Source: a virus. Taken from it: a stretch of 64,000 nucleotides of DNA. Location of the stretch: IMG/VR virus record IMGVR_UViG_3300008451_000399, positions 1 to 64,000 of that record; one strand, 5' to 3'. The notes beneath the pieces are model-generated. The model was not told the DNA's origin and ran no database searches. It worked only from the letters and a program-made list of their open reading frames with translations. How positions within the stretch are numbered: position 1 is the first letter of the stretch; each line of letters opens with the position of its first letter. The position numbers and the translations under genes were made by a program. Shown in pieces: positions 2,255-55,939 of the stretch.

Positions 2255-3394
2255 TTACTTCAATCCTGCACATAACAAAAGCACTTCCTCTTTCCTGTCA
2301 ATGCTAATACTCTCTCGTCTGAAGCCTTCGCAGTCTATTAAGCCTGTTTTGTGTAGGGCTTTGATAGCGCTCTCCACTGATAACACCTTAGTGCCAGAGC
2401 CTTCAAAGATTCTTGTTGAGAGGATTTTGTAGCCTAGCTCTTTTAAGTTCTTACGGTGGGTTGTAAGACGGTTGTTGAGCTTGTTTGTGATGCCATATCC
2501 TAGGATTGTACCAGAGTCTGTTTGGATTTCTAAGAGGTATAAAGAGCCTTGTTTGGTTTTGTCATAGCCTGTTAGTGGTGGGTTGCATTTTAGGCAGTGA
2601 CAGCCTGTCTTATTTAAGTCACTGGAGTTTCGAGAGTACACCCCGTGAGTATTACACAAGAAAACAGAATACCATGCCTCCTTCTTCCTATAAGCTCCAA
2701 TTACTTCAACCCCACTCAGTTTCTGTATGTTCAATTTAGTTTTGGTTATTTCAACAATATGATCTCCTGTAATACGTTTACTTACCGATGAGCAGTAACA
2801 AGGTATTTGCCCACTAAAAAGAGAAGCAGAGTTAATTTCAAACAAACTTTCAAAACCTCTGTTTTCGCATATCTTACAGTAAAAACCACACACCACGTTA
2901 AAACCTGTCTTCTTGCCACTATCCCAAACGATGTAATTAGAATTATCTTTATTATACATGGCAATTCTTTCTTCTGCTGAAAATGTTTTACCTCGATTAC
3001 CTTTACCACTAAAGAAGTCGTATATAGAATATACTTCATACTCAGTAAGTGACTTGTTACAAAACAGTTTTACTGGTGTACTGTTAAGTGACGACACCCT
3101 ATTACCAAACCCAACAAATTCAATGTCAAGATTCTCATCTATAATTTTACGTTTAATTCTAATCTCGTATTGCGGTAAAGTCCAATAGAACTTTTTAGCA
3201 CAACCACAAGGAAGACTCCCTTTTTCACAACTCCCATATGCAGTTTCAAAAACACCATCTCCAAATAATTCAGGGTCTTTTGCGCAAACACTACACTTAA
3301 CCTTAACATAACCATACTTATCACCGCCATCCACCACAACAAGCTTAGCGTCATTGAACGTCTTCCCAATATGTGACCTACAGTATTTCCCCAT
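2255..3394 (-). CDS. free-standing homing endonuclease-like protein (repeated Cys/Zn modules, C-terminal GIY-YIG/T5orf172-like domain)
   Basis: Two CxxC...PCxC modules; C-terminal LYLLEI...YGITNKLNNRL..H and E..IK...EGFRRE motifs. Confidence 0.65.
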   Translation of the reverse strand: MGKYCRSHIGKTFNDAKLVVVDGGDKYGYVKVKCSVCAKDPELFGDGVFETAYGSCEKGSLPCGCAKKFYWTLPQYEIRIKRKIIDENLDIEFVGFGNRVSSLNSTPVKLFCNKSLTEYEVYSIYDFFSGKGNRGKTFSAEERIAMYNKDNSNYIVWDSGKKTGFNVVCGFYCKICENRGFESLFEINSASLFSGQIPCYCSSVSKRITGDHIVEITKTKLNIQKLSGVEVIGAYRKKEAWYSVFLCNTHGVYSRNSSDLNKTGCHCLKCNPPLTGYDKTKQGSLYLLEIQTDSGTILGYGITNKLNNRLTTHRKNLKELGYKILSTRIFEGSGTKVLSVESAIKALHKTGLIDCEGFRRESISIDRKEEVLLLCAGLK

Positions 3395-10475: not shown

Positions 10476-10534
10476 GTATTTATTTTACAGACTTTAGATA
10501 TTATTGTGATAACATATTTATTTTCACAAGGGGC

Positions 10535-10563
10535 TTGACAACAGTGAAGATATGGTTTATACT
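10535..10563 (+). promoter_or_regulatory. sigma70 promoter (TTGACA-17-TATACT) for the packaging operon
   Basis: Hexamers with a 17-bp spacer upstream of terS. Confidence 0.8.
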
Positions 10564-10593
10564 TCATATTATAAGTAAATAAGCAGGAGATGT

Positions 10594-10974
10594 ATGAGTG
10601 CAGACGTAGATAATTCAGTAGGAGAGATAGTAAGGACAGGTGTTCAGAGTAAGAAGAACTCTATCACTATTCAGAAGAGGTTACTAAACAAAGAAAACAA
10701 ACCATCTATGGCTTACTTGGTATCTGTGAGAGATGACCCCACAGCAAGTAGGAAAGATAGGATGGAAGCAGCGAAGTTTCTCATGACTATGCACATGGAA
10801 TCTATCAAAGTCGAGTCTGCGGAGAAGGCTAGGAATAAAGAGTTTGCTGCGAAGCATCATGAATTACTTTTAAGTATTCAACGTAATGGTGGTATTATTG
10901 TGGATGATAGTGATGACGATGATGAGTCAAGTCCTCTACTTATGTTCGATCAAATCATGGATGTGGATGAATAA
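10594..10974 (+). CDS. terS: putative terminase small subunit
   Basis: 126 aa, first gene upstream of terL, helical with acidic C-terminus; assignment mainly positional. Confidence 0.6.
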   Translation: MSADVDNSVGEIVRTGVQSKKNSITIQKRLLNKENKPSMAYLVSVRDDPTASRKDRMEAAKFLMTMHMESIKVESAEKARNKEFAAKHHELLLSIQRNGGIIVDDSDDDDESSPLLMFDQIMDVDE

Positions 10975-10980
10975 AATCTT

Positions 10981-11500
10981 ATCAACCATGTGTTGATGTA
11001 GTCTCTCGCAAATATTAACTTGATACTGTCACTCGACACTTCAAGGTTTGTGAGGGAAGCTAGGCTCTGAGATATGTTGGCTTGCCTCCCCTCAGAGGGT
11101 TCCTTCTTAGCAAGGACAAGAATGCGTGGTTGCAGTCACCGTGTAGGATTGAGGAGTTCCTTATAAACCTCGTTACGTACCTTTAGTTTAATGTTAGAAC
11201 ATACGCCTGCAGCGTAAAGTGAGAGGTCAAAACTCTCAGGGTACTCCATAGATTGCAAATACAACGGCTCTCCGTCATTCTCCTGCCATGCCCTCCTCAT
11301 GGTTCTCCTGTGACGTTGTAGAGCCGTTCTGTTTGCAATTTTTCGCAACAGTGTTTCGTCCCATATCTGGTAATTAGCGCCGTAAGTATCGTGGAACACT
11401 GTTGCATTCGGTATTTGCAAATAAAGAATATCAAGTATTTATAAGTACGAAAGTTAATGCAGGTGCGTGGTTGCAAGTTAGTAACCACTTATTCTGTATT
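10981..11500 (+). ncRNA. candidate large structured non-coding RNA or structured terL leader
   Basis: At least 7 hairpins or multibranch domains; many G-U pairs that work only on the + strand; no credible + strand ORF. Confidence 0.65.
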
Positions 11501-11526
11501 GGCGAATGTGAATTTAAAGGAGTAAA

Positions 11527-12966
11527 ATGAGTAAAAAAGAACGTAAAGTTCTTGCTCCAGCGTCAGAAGCACATAGGAAGTTTCTTAATTGTAAATCTAA
11601 TTTTGTTATTTTCGGAGGCGGGGCAGGTTCGGGCAAATCGCACCAAGCGTTAATGTTAATTTTAAAATACATTCACGACCCATACTTCAGAGGTGTATTT
11701 ATCCGCGAAACATCCACACAGCTTTCTCAGGCTGGTGGTTTGTTCATGGAAGCACAAGATATGTGGAAAGATTACGGAGCAAAGTTTAAGACACATCCTC
11801 AGATGACTGCCACATTTCCAAGTGGAGCACAAGTACAGTTCAAAGTGTGCCAAGCAGATAGAGATATCAACAACTTCGACGGTGGGCAGTTTTCACTGGT
11901 GTGCTTCGATGAGGCGCAATGGCACAGTGAAACTCAAATCAAGTATCTAGAGTCTCGTATTCGTTCTAAAGCACAAGCACCTCACCAACTTATCTGTACA
12001 GCCAACCCTTCAAGAGCTTCTTACCTCTACCAATTCGTGCAACCATATCTTGATATGGAAACAGGTATTCCTATTCCTGAATTGTCTGGTAAAGAGAGAT
12101 ACTACGCTACTTATGGTGGTGTTACGGTAACAGCAGATACAAAAGAAGAGTTACTTGAGAAGTACGGAGATAAAGTACAAGCTCAAACATACACTTATAT
12201 CTCTGCTACGGTTAAAGATAACCCGATCATGAAAATCCTGAATCCAAACTATGTAGCGCGTTTGGAGAACTTGAAGCGTACAGAACGTGAACGCCTCTAC
12301 TTGGGGTCATGGCACGCCAAAGAAGAGTCACGAGGATTTTTTAAGAGAGATTGGTGTGAAGTAATTACACAACTTCCAGACGATATTGTATCTACTGTGC
12401 GTGGTATGGATATTGCTGGTAGCTTACCTTCTGAAGCCTACCCCGACCCTGATTGGACTGCATCTGTAATGATGTCTAAGACAAAATCAGGACATTACAT
12501 TATACACCACGGAGAGAGATATAGGTCTTTAATCAATGGGGTAATGGAACACATTGCAGAGACAGACAGAAGAGATAAAGCAATAGGACATTTTCCTGCT
12601 GTGTATTTACCTGAAGACGTTGGGGTAGCAGCAAAGGCAGCAACGATGTTTTTTGTTAAAACACTAATTGAGTCTGGTGTAGATGCAAGGATTGATAAGT
12701 CTGGTGGCACGAAGAGCAAATTGCACAGGATGCAACCCTTTCTTACATTGGCAGAAGCAGGCTTTGTTAAAATTTTAGACGATGGTAGTTGGGACACAGA
12801 GCCTTTGTTGTCAGAATTGGAAGATTTTGTAGATGGGAAGCGCCAGCAAAAAGATGATTACTGGGATGCAACTGGTACAGCATGTAAGGCATTGATGAGA
12901 ACACAGACACTGCCCACATTCAGCCTACCCTCCCTAACAAAGCCATCCCCAGTTCCAAGAATATAA
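11527..12966 (+). CDS. terL: terminase large subunit
   Basis: GGGAGSGKS Walker A, CFDEA Walker B, TANP motif, GMDIA and KDDYWDA nuclease motifs. Confidence 0.95.
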   Translation: MSKKERKVLAPASEAHRKFLNCKSNFVIFGGGAGSGKSHQALMLILKYIHDPYFRGVFIRETSTQLSQAGGLFMEAQDMWKDYGAKFKTHPQMTATFPSGAQVQFKVCQADRDINNFDGGQFSLVCFDEAQWHSETQIKYLESRIRSKAQAPHQLICTANPSRASYLYQFVQPYLDMETGIPIPELSGKERYYATYGGVTVTADTKEELLEKYGDKVQAQTYTYISATVKDNPIMKILNPNYVARLENLKRTERERLYLGSWHAKEESRGFFKRDWCEVITQLPDDIVSTVRGMDIAGSLPSEAYPDPDWTASVMMSKTKSGHYIIHHGERYRSLINGVMEHIAETDRRDKAIGHFPAVYLPEDVGVAAKAATMFFVKTLIESGVDARIDKSGGTKSKLHRMQPFLTLAEAGFVKILDDGSWDTEPLLSELEDFVDGKRQQKDDYWDATGTACKALMRTQTLPTFSLPSLTKPSPVPRI

Positions 12967-50448: not shown

Positions 50449-50525
50449 TGGTGTACCGTGTGTGATTTGAACACACGACCTTGGTGTTATGAGCACCCTG
50501 CTACTGACCTCTGAGCTAACGGTAC
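50449..50525 (-). tRNA. tRNA with CAU anticodon, probably tRNA-Ile2
   Basis: GTACCGT/ACGGTAC acceptor, A73, encoded CCA, CTCATAA loop, TTCAAAT T-loop; C4:G69 and C5:G68 favour Ile2 over Met. Confidence 0.88.
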
Positions 50526-50527
50526 AA

Positions 50528-50605
50528 TGGTGACACTGGCAGGAGTCGAACCTGCGACCTATGGAGTAGAAATCCACTGCTCTAAATCCTCTGAGCTACA
50601 GTGCC
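50528..50605 (-). tRNA. tRNA-Arg(UCU)
   Basis: GGCACTG/CAGTGTC acceptor, GTGGA-TTTCTAC-TCCAT anticodon arm, TTCGACT T-loop, CCA. Confidence 0.9.
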
Positions 50606-53551: not shown

Positions 53552-53794
53552 CTTGTAATTGTACACTCGTTACGTGTTTCGTTATTTTCATAACTAATTG
53601 GACTATATCACCACCCTGACAGGGTGCTCACCGTTTCGAGTTCACTTGAACCCTACTCCATCTCTGGATAGTCTCTGGGCATTTAGGAAGCAAGCTTCCA
53701 TTTAGCACAGTGGTTAGCGTAGCTCCCGCCTTAGCTTTCCCTGTTTAGATGAGTTATCATTTACAGATTACTCTGTAAAGCCACAACAATGTTT
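53552..53794 (-). mobile_element. group I intron (IA2-like, 243 nt, no ORF) in the DNA polymerase gene
   Basis: 5' splice after U (CAU), terminal G, R element CAGAGACUA (53669-53677), S element GAUAUAGUCC (53600-53609), P2, P3, P7.1, P7.2, P8 and P9 stems; splicing restores IAYH-DEAQ. Confidence 0.92.
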
Positions 53795-55939
53795 ATGGTA
53801 CGCAATAAGCTGTTGACAGAAGTTTTTATTCTTCCAATCGTCCTTAAAGAAATCCACACTAAGCCCTTCATCCTTCAGCATCTTATCGTGGAGCACCATC
53901 GCACGTTTGGCAGCAATAACACCACAACTTTGAAACTGACTATTAACTACATTTCCTTTAGATCGAATAGGTAGCTTACGTCCATCAATACCGAGTAAGA
54001 ATTTCTTCTGCCCAGTAGTCTCCCAATACTTCTGCATGTTCTCTTTCAACTGCTTTAGAGGATATGCTTGAGTCCAGAAAGCATTAAAAATAATATTACC
54101 TGTTTCTAAGTCGCAACCTACTGTCTTCGCTACTCGCTTTGGTTGAGCATTATAACTGCAACCGTACTTTACATTCTTAGCTGTTCCACGAGGAAATGGT
54201 CTTCCTAGTAATTCAGTAATACTTGCAGCAAGCACAGAATGACAGTCATTAGGTTTCTCTGCTGTCAAGCTGTAACCGTACTCCTTGCCTCCTTCATACT
54301 TGTAAACAAAGGAAGCTTCAACTTTAGCCTCAAGGCTGTCGAAATCAAAAGCCATCTGAAGGAACCCGTCTTTAACATCCACTCCGAACAAACTGCGCAT
54401 CTCCTTACCATAAATACTTGTCGTTCTGCTAATATTTGCAACTTTACGGTGCTTGAACCTAGAAGTCCCAGCTCCGCAAGTATCAGCAGGTGTTGGAATC
54501 CTATGATCTAAGTTCAATCGCGGCTCACTTAGAAAACCCTTCTCAGGCTCTTCGTCATCTGCGTCAGGGTCTACACCTCCTCCAAGAATACTGTTACGTC
54601 TGTGAGTGTACGTGAAGTAATCAGACACCAACTTAGCATGAGGAAACTTATCAGCAATCTCTAGCAAGTTAGGGTCAATCTCTTTCTCTTGCCCTACTGT
54701 CAGTGTCGGGTTAGTATAAACCTTCAAAGGACGTGAGATGTCATGCTTCATTAACTTCTCTCGCAGCTTCTTAGGAGTTGTCTCCAACTCATCACAACGG
54801 TCTTTACAGAAAGGACTACTTAAAGTCTGCTCTACGTACTTCTCAACTGCTGCTTCAAATTTCTCTCTACTAATCTTTTTCTTCTTTGAGTCACAAGTAA
54901 GGTCACGCTCCTTGTACTGCGTTGGAACCCATTTAAATTCTTGCACTAGCCACCCTTTAATGTGAGAGCTGTCTGCTGCACTGCTACTCAACTTACCAGC
55001 TTCGGTTGAAATTAAAGGCTCACATGGAATTGGTAATGCCATACTCTTATCAAAGATTGTTGCTACCCACTTTCCATCTACTTCCTCTAGAGTTCCATTG
55101 TGCTTGCTAATAAAGTTTTTAATGTGTGTACTAGGTTGCCCACTTTTCAAGAATTGAGTATTAGGTGGAGTGTACTCTTTCTGCTTCGTCTTCGGTAGAG
55201 ACTTAGGTGGAATAAGAGGTTCAACAATGTCACGTATTGTATCCATCTTTTCGTCTAAATCTCGTACACAGTCTTCGGCTTTATCTTTATCAAACCAGAA
55301 GCCTCTGTGCTGTTGTCGTGTAATGATTTCAGCAACAGCTTGTTCCAACTTAAAAGCATCAGTCCAATTCCAATCACCCCACTCTTTCATCAGAGCTTTA
55401 TAGACTAAGTGATTAACTTCTACGTCTCGAATGTTATACACAAGCATTTCTGGATGGTACTGTTTAAATTCATCTCCGTCAGAAGCATCCTTTCCAATCA
55501 GTCCCATCTCAATAGCCTTGCTTCGCCAGTCAATCTTCTCAAGTCCTAGTGTCTTACCCCAAGCATCAATACTATGACCTCCATAGCGGTCTGGATTAAG
55601 AGCTTTTGACAAAATTAGGGTATCCCATATCTCTACAGGCTTACCATCTATCTTGTCAATGTCTCCTATTTCGTAGTCAATACCTAAGTACAATTTAATA
55701 GCCAACAAGTCAAAGTTGATTTGGTTGTGAGCAATAACCATTGTAGCTTGTTTAAAGAAAGCTGGAAACTTAGTTTTCACTTCGTCTTCTACGAATGTGT
55801 AAATCTTGCCAGTGTCTATGTCTTTAGCAGCTATACAGTGAATCTTAAACGTGTCTAAGAGTTTGTAAGGGCTGCTAGTATAGTCTACACTCGTGTGGTC
55901 GATGAAGCCATTGCTCTCAATATCCCATACAATTCTCAT
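53795..55939 (-). CDS. DNA polymerase (family A, T7-like), exon 1
   Basis: Exo I WDIESNG, HNQINFD, YN..DV; motif A DFDSLE; motif B R..AK...YG..Y. Confidence 0.95.

Follow-up and report, generated by a model that had tools for sequence, protein, structure and literature searches.

The terminase genes terS and terL of an uncultured phage, recovered from freshwater (lake) metagenomes and of myovirus size, are separated by a gap in which we recognise several structured RNA elements, in particular a hairpin of ~95 nucleotides (nt), here called HP1, and a degenerate transfer RNA (tRNA) directly in front of it. The window analysed, 64,000 nt long, is part of the 86,411-base IMG/VR virus record IMGVR_UViG_3300008451_000399. 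According to its list of open reading frames (ORFs), a terS-like ORF of 126 amino acids (aa), named from its position only, occupies 10594-10974 of the + strand and terL starts at 11527, leaving a gap of 552 nt (10975-11526) whose sole + strand ORF of at least 40 aa encodes 42 aa (11402-11530). An earlier, sequence-only reading had described this gap, which is real, as some 550 nt without a + strand ORF, and had interpreted it as one non-coding RNA of ~520 nt with a role in regulation or packaging. A sigma-70-like promoter at 10535-10563, in front of the terS-like gene (+ strand; TTGACA, 17 nt, TATACT; 11/12 matches in a consensus scan), is the presumed origin of a transcript that would carry the RNA modules. 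The same reading had the region transcribed from 10535; the consensus-type promoter is indeed there, while the transcript itself is presumed.

Folding of the gap

Folded as a whole, the + strand of the gap reaches -179.6 kcal/mol (z-score relative to shuffled sequences, z, -6.3; 0/100 shuffles as good), against -142.1 kcal/mol for the - strand (z -2.6; 1/100 shuffles as good), so the + strand asymmetry that had been ascribed to G-U pairs is real. All the stems listed previously stand where they had been placed and are fully complementary (12/12 pairs). The statement that nearly all of the gap folds was too generous: when the + strand was split into nine segments, each folded alone and compared with shuffles, five were clearly better than chance, namely 11000-11059 (z -4.3), 11177-11248 (z -2.5), 11249-11343 (z -8.5), 11344-11406 (z -4.1) and 11454-11502 (z -4.5), and four were not, namely 10975-11000 (z -2.2, 10/200 shuffles as good), 11060-11122 (z +1.45), 11118-11176 (z +0.18) and 11407-11455 (z -1.5). 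A cmscan of 10500-11700 against all 4227 Rfam families, at E-values (E) up to 10, had no hits besides tRNA and a chance match to a small nucleolar RNA. The Rfam check that had been proposed for the region thus gave one real family, tRNA, for 11177-11245, and no other; the GOLLD, ROOL, HEARO and phi29 pRNA models, which we take to be among the Rfam families, found nothing in 10500-11700 at E up to 10.

The HP1 hairpin

HP1 (11249-11343, + strand), recognised by its fold, its covariation and a covariance model, folds to -41.6 kcal/mol (z -8.5). A 12-base-pair (bp) lower stem is followed by a C.C mismatch (11262/11329) and an upper stem, which is interrupted by a symmetric internal loop reading UUCUCCUG on both sides (11278-11285 and 11303-11310) and ends in an apical stem, CCAUG/CAUGG, that closes the loop CCCUCCU (11291-11297). 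The exposed loops present the word UUCUCCU twice and CCCUCCU once.

HP1 was compared across related loci, which carry L numbers: a TerL search gave 21 of them, and pattern scans together with a scan for the terS-like protein added L023, L026, L028, L035 and L036 (G numbers denote related genome records, of which G001 holds L022 and G002 holds L005). In an alignment of seven sequences, all 175 cells of the 25 pairs are standard and 14/25 pairs have changed on both sides; none of 500 shuffles was as good, and sliding the partner strand by 1-3 columns left only 36-50% of the cells paired. With ten sequences, two-sided changes are seen in 16 of 29 pairs, and the mismatch is C.C in every sequence (10/10). 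Among relatives the apical stem alternates between CCAUG/CAUGG, GCACG/CGUGC and CCGUG/CACGG (by eye). The covariation across relatives that had been suggested as a check is therefore strong for this hairpin.

The covariance model scores 105.3 bits on the + strand of the window and 32.6 on the - strand, a specificity expected from the many G-U pairs. It finds HP1 at 94-107 bits in 9/9 close loci, and at 76.5 and 38.5 bits in L006 and L007, whose TerL are 65% and 64% identical to that of the window. There is one copy in the 86-kilobase (kb) genome, and the location is always the same: on the strand of terL, after terS and before whichever gene comes next. Farther away, the model run with filters off over the nine loci L009-L017 found nothing at E up to 1 beyond a mere 12.6 bits in L012 (E 0.83), and with default filters it had no match in L018-L021. 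Weak look-alikes with CU-rich tops lie beside tRNAs in L008, L022 and L005 (18-23 bits, z -5.3 to -7.5); these are leads only, their homology to HP1 being unproven. No Rfam family matched HP1 at E up to 10, and an intrinsic-terminator scan did not flag it (the sole flagged hairpin is 11467-11488). By its pattern of covariation, HP1 is a genuine conserved RNA family without a match in that Rfam search. Of the undescribed structured RNA that had been claimed for this gap, what survives is conserved + strand structure outside Rfam, the tRNA excepted, with strong covariation for the ~95-nt hairpin; what does not survive is a single RNA of ~520 nt.

A tRNA-Gly derivative in front of HP1

The element at 11177-11248 (+ strand), whose minimum-energy fold is a cloverleaf, was identified with the Rfam tRNA model. 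The sequence-only reading had stated that the region is not a tRNA, yet its multibranch domain gtacctt/agggtac matches that model end to end: 11177-11245 of the + strand covers model positions 1-71 with 48.7 bits (gathering threshold 29; E 4e-9, local search). The acceptor, D, anticodon and T stems, of 7, 4, 5 and 5 bp, have all 21 of their pairs intact, and the 3' end consists of a discriminator U and an encoded CCA (11246-11248). The damage concerns the loops. That of the anticodon, CUGCA, has only 5 nt, with 1 residue where the model has 3, compared with CUUCCAA in the tRNA-Gly of L036, L006 and L022; the D-loop reads AAUGUUA (GU for GG) and the T-loop GUCAAAA, compared with AAUGGUA and UUCGAUU in L006. 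A D-loop GG and a T-loop UUCRA are signatures of tRNAs. Because the anticodon, D- and T-loops are abnormal, ARAGORN, run over the window, called no tRNA at 11177-11248. With the normal features of all three loops lost, decoding by this element is very unlikely. The element was also considered as a functional tRNA-Ala(UGC), its stem counted as 4 bp and its loop as 7 nt. This was rejected, since position 33 would be a C, G3:U70 is missing, the D- and T-loops depart from the norm and ARAGORN makes no call.

The identity of the element comes from relatives in which a true tRNA-Gly(UCC) stands directly 5' of HP1 or its look-alike (L036 3065-3139, L006 1919-1992, L022 3496-3571). The window's element aligns with all three position by position; it has the D-arm TAGTTTAATG(G/T)TAGAA in common with L006, the T-stem GAGAG/CTCTC with L036 and the terminal TCCA with all. 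In the four phages alike, HP1 (in L022 the HP1-like hairpin) starts 0-3 nt past the CCA. As judged from this alignment, 11177-11248 is a derivative of tRNA-Gly(UCC) in which the fold and the 3' end have been kept and the decoding features lost.

A mosaic slot in related phages

Eight close and five more distant relatives have the same slot, filled with interchangeable modules. Even relatives with 95-97% identical TerL have only positions 153-201 and 275-455 of the gap in common, in pieces. When blastn was run segment by segment, the small stem-loop SL0 with the 27-nt motif behind it, HP1 and the hairpin HP2 found relatives; the tRNA-like element and 10975-11125 found nothing in them, and the 3' block 11407-11526 found the terL ribosome-binding site (RBS) stretch and one 19-nt match, in L005 only. 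Against 50,697 phage records, blastn with the gap gave no match. Close relatives hold only parts of the row, and modules are present, absent or swapped independently of one another, which does not fit the unit comparable to GOLLD, ROOL or pRNA that had been envisaged.

Transfer RNA genes occupy the slot in several relatives. ARAGORN calls five in L006 (a sixth, weak, is seen with Rfam), four in L008, two in L022 and one each in L003, L005, L012 and L036. A weak tRNA(CAU)-like element with the anticodon loop CUCAUAA, not called by ARAGORN, is found in L002 (3688-3762, 35.6 bits) and L006 (1596-1670, 37.6 bits), and L003 has, at ~800-850, an apparent truncated remnant of it of which only the 5' third is left (by eye). 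These are signs of further tRNA decay in the slot. TTGACA-type promoters precede the island in L005 and L008 (by eye).

On the 3' side of HP1, most relatives have a further module, M4, of which the window shows only a possible remnant (by eye). M4 consists of a GA-rich box resembling a Shine-Dalgarno (SD) sequence, a hairpin with a loop ending in AUG or UUG, and a second hairpin, 'hairpin b', with a GCAGGUAGUGUGG-like loop and variable stem letters; the start codon in the first hairpin opens a mini-ORF of 1-14 codons in most relatives and a longer one in L005. Its coordinates are 3918-3984 in L002, 1150-1217 in L003, 1648-1715 in L023, 2096-2165 in L006, 3752-3822 in L022, 2891-2962 in L005 and 2851-2920 in L007. 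The GA box is not present in the window.

The gene that follows the modules is exchanged too. In L023 (~1733) and L026 (~5850), a terL type only 33% identical to the window TerL stands behind the same terS-like gene and RNA modules, and in L035 the other terL type begins at 1283 (read by eye); the terS-like genes of these three are 68-89% identical to that of the window, and the boundary of the terL exchange falls inside the RNA island. Since the modules of L023 and L026 precede a terL that is 33% identical, they are not bound to one terminase, and nothing that we found ties the region to packaging, the role that had been considered for it. Free-standing homing-endonuclease-like genes lie between RNA modules and terL in L006 (2257-3189, T5orf172/MUG113 + DUF723), L026 (4632-5603, HNH), L004 (from ~3183) and L007 (from ~3040). 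In front of each of these genes is a long conserved hairpin that has a TATAAT stretch resembling a promoter.

Ribosome-binding sites and the HP1 loops

The loop words of HP1 are complementary to one of two classes of RBS in this genome. By a crude ORF rule that is not a gene caller and whose denominators include spurious ORFs, AGGAGA followed after 3-10 nt by the start of an ORF of at least 40 aa occurs 36 times in the window, 34 times on the - strand and twice on the + strand (the 34 include the antisense of HP1; 22/36 read AGGAGAA), and GGAG lies 4-16 nt before the start of 48/147 - strand ORFs vs 5/120 + strand ORFs. The structural genes of the + strand have AAAGGAA-type sites. In five related genomes, AGGAGAA followed after 3-8 nt by ATG occurs 19-39 times per genome vs 0-2 times in a reversed control. 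The strand bias is strong in four of the five; in G002 and G003 the favoured strand is the one opposite to terL, and in G002 the word serves 18/77 ORFs on one strand vs 1/61 on the other. The terS-like gene itself has the RBS CAGGAGA (10584-10590), complementary over 7 nt to the HP1 loop UCUCCUG and kept in 6/7 close relatives, the exception being L003 with CAGGGGA. In duplex calculations on short strings, partly composed by the analyst, the internal loop of HP1 reaches -10.0 kcal/mol for the AGGAGAA class, -10.8 for the terS RBS and -4.8 for the late class.

Interpretation and alternatives

That the gap has the modular architecture of a tRNA island is highly probable, and the giant non-coding RNA of the earlier reading is best corrected to such an island. 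The explanation that we favour goes further, and we give it a probability of about 0.6. The island would be a row of independent + strand RNA modules, the remnant of a phage tRNA and small-RNA (sRNA) island, co-transcribed with terS from the sigma-70-like promoter at 10535. The tRNA-like element would still be the handle by which host enzymes that mature tRNAs act on the transcript. To be cut by bacterial RNase P, an RNA requires hardly more than stacked acceptor and T stems with a 3' CCA, and a tRNA gene stripped of its decoding features with its fold retained is what reuse of the fold in processing would lead one to expect. Cleavage by RNase P would fall at the 5' end of the element and 3' trimming would halt at the CCA, and this processing would free HP1 as a stable sRNA. 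The HP1 loops would then pair with SD sequences of the GGAG type, the best fit being the AGGAGAA sites of the opposite-strand (early or middle) genes and the RBS of terS; the AAAGGAA-type sites of the + strand structural genes would fit poorly, and the outcome would be damped translation from GGAG-type sites.

The anti-RBS mode of action, taken by itself, is put forward tentatively and is somewhat on the improbable side. Its most specific form is rather doubtful: HP1 would be a class-specific translational switch that binds AGGAGAA-type sites, terS and probably strong host sites as tightly as the ribosome does or more so, spares AAAGGAA and so turns translation to late proteins, with the decayed tRNA-Gly kept only as a handle.

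Several observations weigh against the favoured explanation. First, the closeness of the promoter at 10535 to the host consensus points to early expression, not late, and is a poor fit with a late shut-off of early genes. Second, HP1 can do without a tRNA handle, since in 7/9 close relatives no tRNA precedes it. Third, intact stems with damaged loops could reflect selection for the fold, as we propose, or else recent inactivation of the tRNA. Fourth, every CU-rich loop complements every SD sequence, which means that the fit to AGGAGAA cannot serve as specific proof, and the counts of that word have the inflated denominators mentioned above. Fifth, G001 (L022) does not fit: AGGAGAA is rare there (3/97 and 3/82 ORFs), and its weak HP1-like hairpin carries CCUCCUCUCC, whose complement GGAGAGG is rare as an RBS (0 and 1); covariation of loop and RBS across the genomes was not shown. 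Sixth, none of the sequencing runs listed for this DNA is recorded as RNA. Lastly, for HP2, the hairpin that follows HP1 (11345-11405), RNAalifold finds 0/18 pairs changed on both sides, and one cell is broken (C.A in L003).

Among the alternatives, the one that fares best, unlikely as it is, has HP1 and its neighbours act solely in cis as leader, processing or stability signals of the packaging operon, with no trans-acting sRNA. They might contain an RNase III site, end the tRNA transcript with a hairpin that stabilises its 3' end, offer a platform for ribosome standby or for S1 binding, or, as an anti-SD element, adjust how strongly terS, terL or an inserted homing-endonuclease gene is translated. 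The constant strand and position of HP1 relative to terS and the gene that follows speak for such a role, as does its 22-bp lower helix with one conserved C.C mismatch, which resembles the long irregular hairpins of T7 early RNA that RNase III cuts. The conserved terS RBS offers a partner in cis with its 7-nt complement to the loop, and in many relatives so could the downstream GA-rich box (GUGGAGAGGG or GAGGUGAGAGG), which stands before the start codon in the hairpin loop of M4 and could pair with the CU loops; runs of 3-5 U follow HP1. However, this box is not in the window, by eye no variant of the box covaries with the loops, and HP1 is not flagged as terminator-like. Moreover, the gene 3' of HP1 varies (two terL types, an HNH or a T5orf172 endonuclease), which argues against a dedicated partner in cis.

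Distinctly improbable, and tenable only for the parts other than HP1, is that the gap is mostly inert debris, left by the reductive decay of a tRNA array, with hairpins that are spacers between tRNAs or scars of mobile elements and have no present function. Decay is visible enough in the degenerate tRNA of the window, the truncated remnant of L003 and the weak tRNA-like elements of L002 and L006; the 5' block is private to this phage, four segments fold no better than chance, a 12-nt direct repeat surrounds the conserved core, and homing endonuclease genes and introns lie nearby in relatives. However, 14-16 pairs of HP1 have been kept through two-sided changes, with invariant loops and mismatch, at TerL identities of 64-65%, and the 27-nt motif is identical in 7/7 holders while its flanks vary. 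The compensatory changes and the invariant motif are signs of purifying selection.

That the whole ~520 nt form one large RNA like GOLLD, ROOL or phi29 pRNA, with a role in regulation or packaging, is very improbable. The z of -6.3 for the entire + strand, the location between packaging genes and the lack of any Rfam match other than tRNA speak for this idea. It does not accommodate the differing combinations of parts kept by close relatives, a 5' end of 150 nt that is private, long-range pairs of the minimum-energy fold that involve these private parts, one module that is a tRNA derivative, or modules in L023 and L026 that precede an unrelated terL type, and the GOLLD, ROOL and pRNA models had no match at E up to 10. 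Finally, it is extremely improbable that the - strand frame of 94 aa at 11136-11420, antisense to the tRNA-like element, HP1 and HP2, encodes a protein to which the hairpins are incidental: it is open over 94-100 codons, related frames exist in L002 (74 codons) and L026 (124 codons) with NRTALQRHRR and EVYKELLNP in common, tblastn gives 50% identity over 70 aa in L002 and PHROGs one marginal match (E 0.0049), but the frame is not conserved among relatives, since L004 and L023 read HP1 in another frame with an unrelated peptide, L003 and L028 have no frame of at least 45 codons over HP1 and that of L002 lacks an ATG, no Pfam family matches, and the substitutions compensate one another in the helix of the + strand, whose G-U pairs would read A.C on the opposite strand (model score 105 vs 33 bits). 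We judge that it is not a gene.

Comparison with known systems

The proposed processing and action of HP1 have separate precedents. In the E. coli 3'ETS-leuZ trailer and in the tRNA-like-plus-hairpin units of the gammaherpesvirus MHV68, small RNAs linked to tRNAs are freed by tRNA processing. The likeness is that a tRNA or tRNA-like fold adjoins a functional RNA that is not a tRNA, and tRNA nucleases set one of its ends; the difference is that for HP1 such processing is a proposal, and that most close relatives have HP1 with no tRNA in front. The RegB protein of phage T4, an endoribonuclease, inactivates GGAG-type RBSs of early messages. HP1 would serve the same end, by pairing, it is proposed, where RegB is a protein nuclease.

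Anti-SD loops are known from bacterial sRNAs, including C-rich-loop sRNAs of Firmicutes such as RNAIII and RsaE. The sRNA NfeR1 silences messenger RNAs by three redundant anti-SD loops that occlude the RBS (bioRxiv 10.1101/2025.11.14.688489). NfeR1 and the 'CuKoo' or alpha-r14 sRNAs of Alphaproteobacteria are like HP1, which shows three such motifs, in having redundant anti-SD motifs in hairpin loops; unlike HP1, which has UUCUCCU and CCCUCCU on one hairpin and is phage-encoded and linked to a tRNA, they have CCUCCUCCC on three hairpins. No family of the CuKoo/alpha-r14 type matched HP1 in Rfam at E up to 10.

Virulent phages are already known to have small stable RNAs beside tRNA genes, T4 and PAK_P3 among them. 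The T4 tRNA cluster has, in its annotation, eight tRNAs, the homing endonuclease gene segB and, after the last tRNA, rnaC and rnaD (species 1 and 2). This layout is paralleled here by HP1 directly after tRNA-Gly in L036 and L006 (and by the look-alike in L022) and by T5orf172 or HNH genes beside the modules in relatives. The RNAs themselves are unlike: run over the T4 tRNA region, the HP1 model reaches at best ~5 bits at rnaC and rnaD, with which there is no homology in sequence or structure. The T4 RNAs resemble tRNAs in their 3' parts; HP1, by contrast, is a simple long hairpin whose loops are rich in C and U. The function of the T4 small stable RNAs was still given as unknown as of 2016 (PMC4933390). 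The same paper describes sRNA2 of PAK_P3, an 88-kb myovirus, as an abundant RNA of ~100 nt between two phage tRNAs (PMC4933390). The genome of PAK_P3 is similar in size to that studied here, and its terminase is the nearest cultured match of the window TerL (40%; TerL identity to cultured-phage terminases is at most 40%). In contrast, sRNA2 is reported to have a T-loop-like 11-mer and not anti-SD loops (PMC4933390), and the HP1 model had no match in the PAK_P3 genome. Our literature searches, which did not cover the PAK_P3 sRNA sequences given in a supplementary table, found no paper describing HP1.

As a predicted RNA, HP1 joins the phage small RNAs that are linked to tRNA clusters, is distinguished by anti-SD loops and has no Rfam counterpart. 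Its clade is an unusually clean comparative case, combining compensatory changes, an invariant mismatch, three anti-SD loops and two RBS words divided by strand. RNA-based, class-specific control of translation during infection is a concrete and testable idea that comes from it.

Remaining modules and flanking genes

The other modules of the gap are described from 5' to 3'. The 5' block (10975-11124, + strand), private to this phage, has a small hairpin at 10981-10997, a stable one at 11002-11057 and weak stems at 11065-11097 and 11101-11116; only 11000-11059 folds better than shuffles, 11060-11122 standing at z +1.45. It had no blastn match at E up to 0.05 in the relatives' loci or the rest of the window, and no Rfam match. 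SL0 (11125-11143, + strand), whose word is GGTTGCAG(T/C)CAC, is a small stem-loop known from the alignment, its fold being no better than chance. The word recurs between modules like punctuation in L006, L007, L008, L035 and L036 (by eye). In the window it belongs to an exact 12-nt direct repeat, TGCGTGGTTGCA (11123-11134 and 11464-11475), which brackets the 27-nt motif, the tRNA-like element, HP1 and HP2, and may be the trace of recombination between punctuation hairpins of the SL0 type.

The 27-nt motif AGGATTGAGGAGTTCCTTATAAACCTC (11145-11171, + strand), also defined by alignment, is shared without change by the window, L002, L003, L004, L023, L026 and L028. It occurs once in the window at up to 3 mismatches, and a metagenome scan with a 20-mer from it found three stretches only. 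By eye, it could form a small H-type pseudoknot (AGGA/UCCU and GAGG/CCUC). Its place is taken in L035 (~790-840), L036 (~3015-3062) and L006 (~1700-1740) by a longer UGUCAGA...UCUGACA element with a loop word that pairs downstream (by eye), which could be the same type of knot in different letters. Two other assignments of the motif were set aside. A repeated promoter was rejected, there being one copy and a shorter core at the level of chance (4 found, with as many in 37/100 shuffles), and a preQ1-like or other riboswitch was dropped for want of an Rfam match and of a start codon behind GAGGAG. Further candidate roles for it would be a pac or cos site or the target of a homing endonuclease.

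HP2 (11345-11405, + strand) is a 13-bp hairpin, gcaacagtgtttc/ggaacactgttgc, with a conserved interior (z -4.1 on the + strand, -2.85 on the - strand), held by the window, L003, L023, L026 and L035. Three of its pairs alternate between G-U and Watson-Crick among the sequences, and the support for HP2 as a conserved RNA structure is weak. HP3 (11406-11429, + strand) is, by alignment, a degenerate copy of a palindromic module that reads ATTCGCTATTYGCGAATAGCGAAT in relatives; it is intact in L003, L004, L026, L028 and L035 (by eye), and 11407-11455 of the window folds at z -1.5. The 3' nested hairpin (11456-11500, + strand), aatgcagg/tctgtatt around gtggttgc/gtaaccac, found nothing by blastn in relatives; it may correspond, in diverged form, to hairpin b of M4 with its GCAGGUAGUGUGG loop. 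Its inner stem is the one flagged as terminator-like, and the T-rich tail belongs to the outer stem.

Of the flanking genes, the terS-like one gives a protein with no Pfam or PHROGs match and no named neighbours in Atlas; its 17 homologues are all without names. The terL gene (11527-12966, + strand) is assigned through Pfam Terminase_6N (E 5e-23), and its RBS AAAGGAG and start codon (11516-11529, + strand) lie in a stretch, GAATTTAAAGGAG, conserved in L002, L003, L023 and L035.

Elsewhere in the window, adjacent genes for tRNA-Met (CAT) and tRNA-Arg (TCT) at 50449-50605 (- strand), the only tRNAs that ARAGORN calls there, show that the phage retains working tRNAs beyond the terS-terL slot, and a group I intron lies at 53579-53805 (- strand; Rfam 77.2 bits). 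Group I introns interrupt the terL of several relatives, in L002 (4074-4275), L003 (1304-1521), L004 (4094-4358), L012 (4440-4659), L021 (3481-3734 and 3946-4219), L026 (6218-6446) and L036 (5068-5310); in L002, L003 and L004 the site follows residue ~32-34, at the Walker A motif, and the window terL is uninterrupted. In four distant relatives, L010, L014, L016 and L018, an interruption of ~1 kb follows residue ~257 in the tblastn match of the portal protein, which suggests an intron or an intein with an endonuclease.

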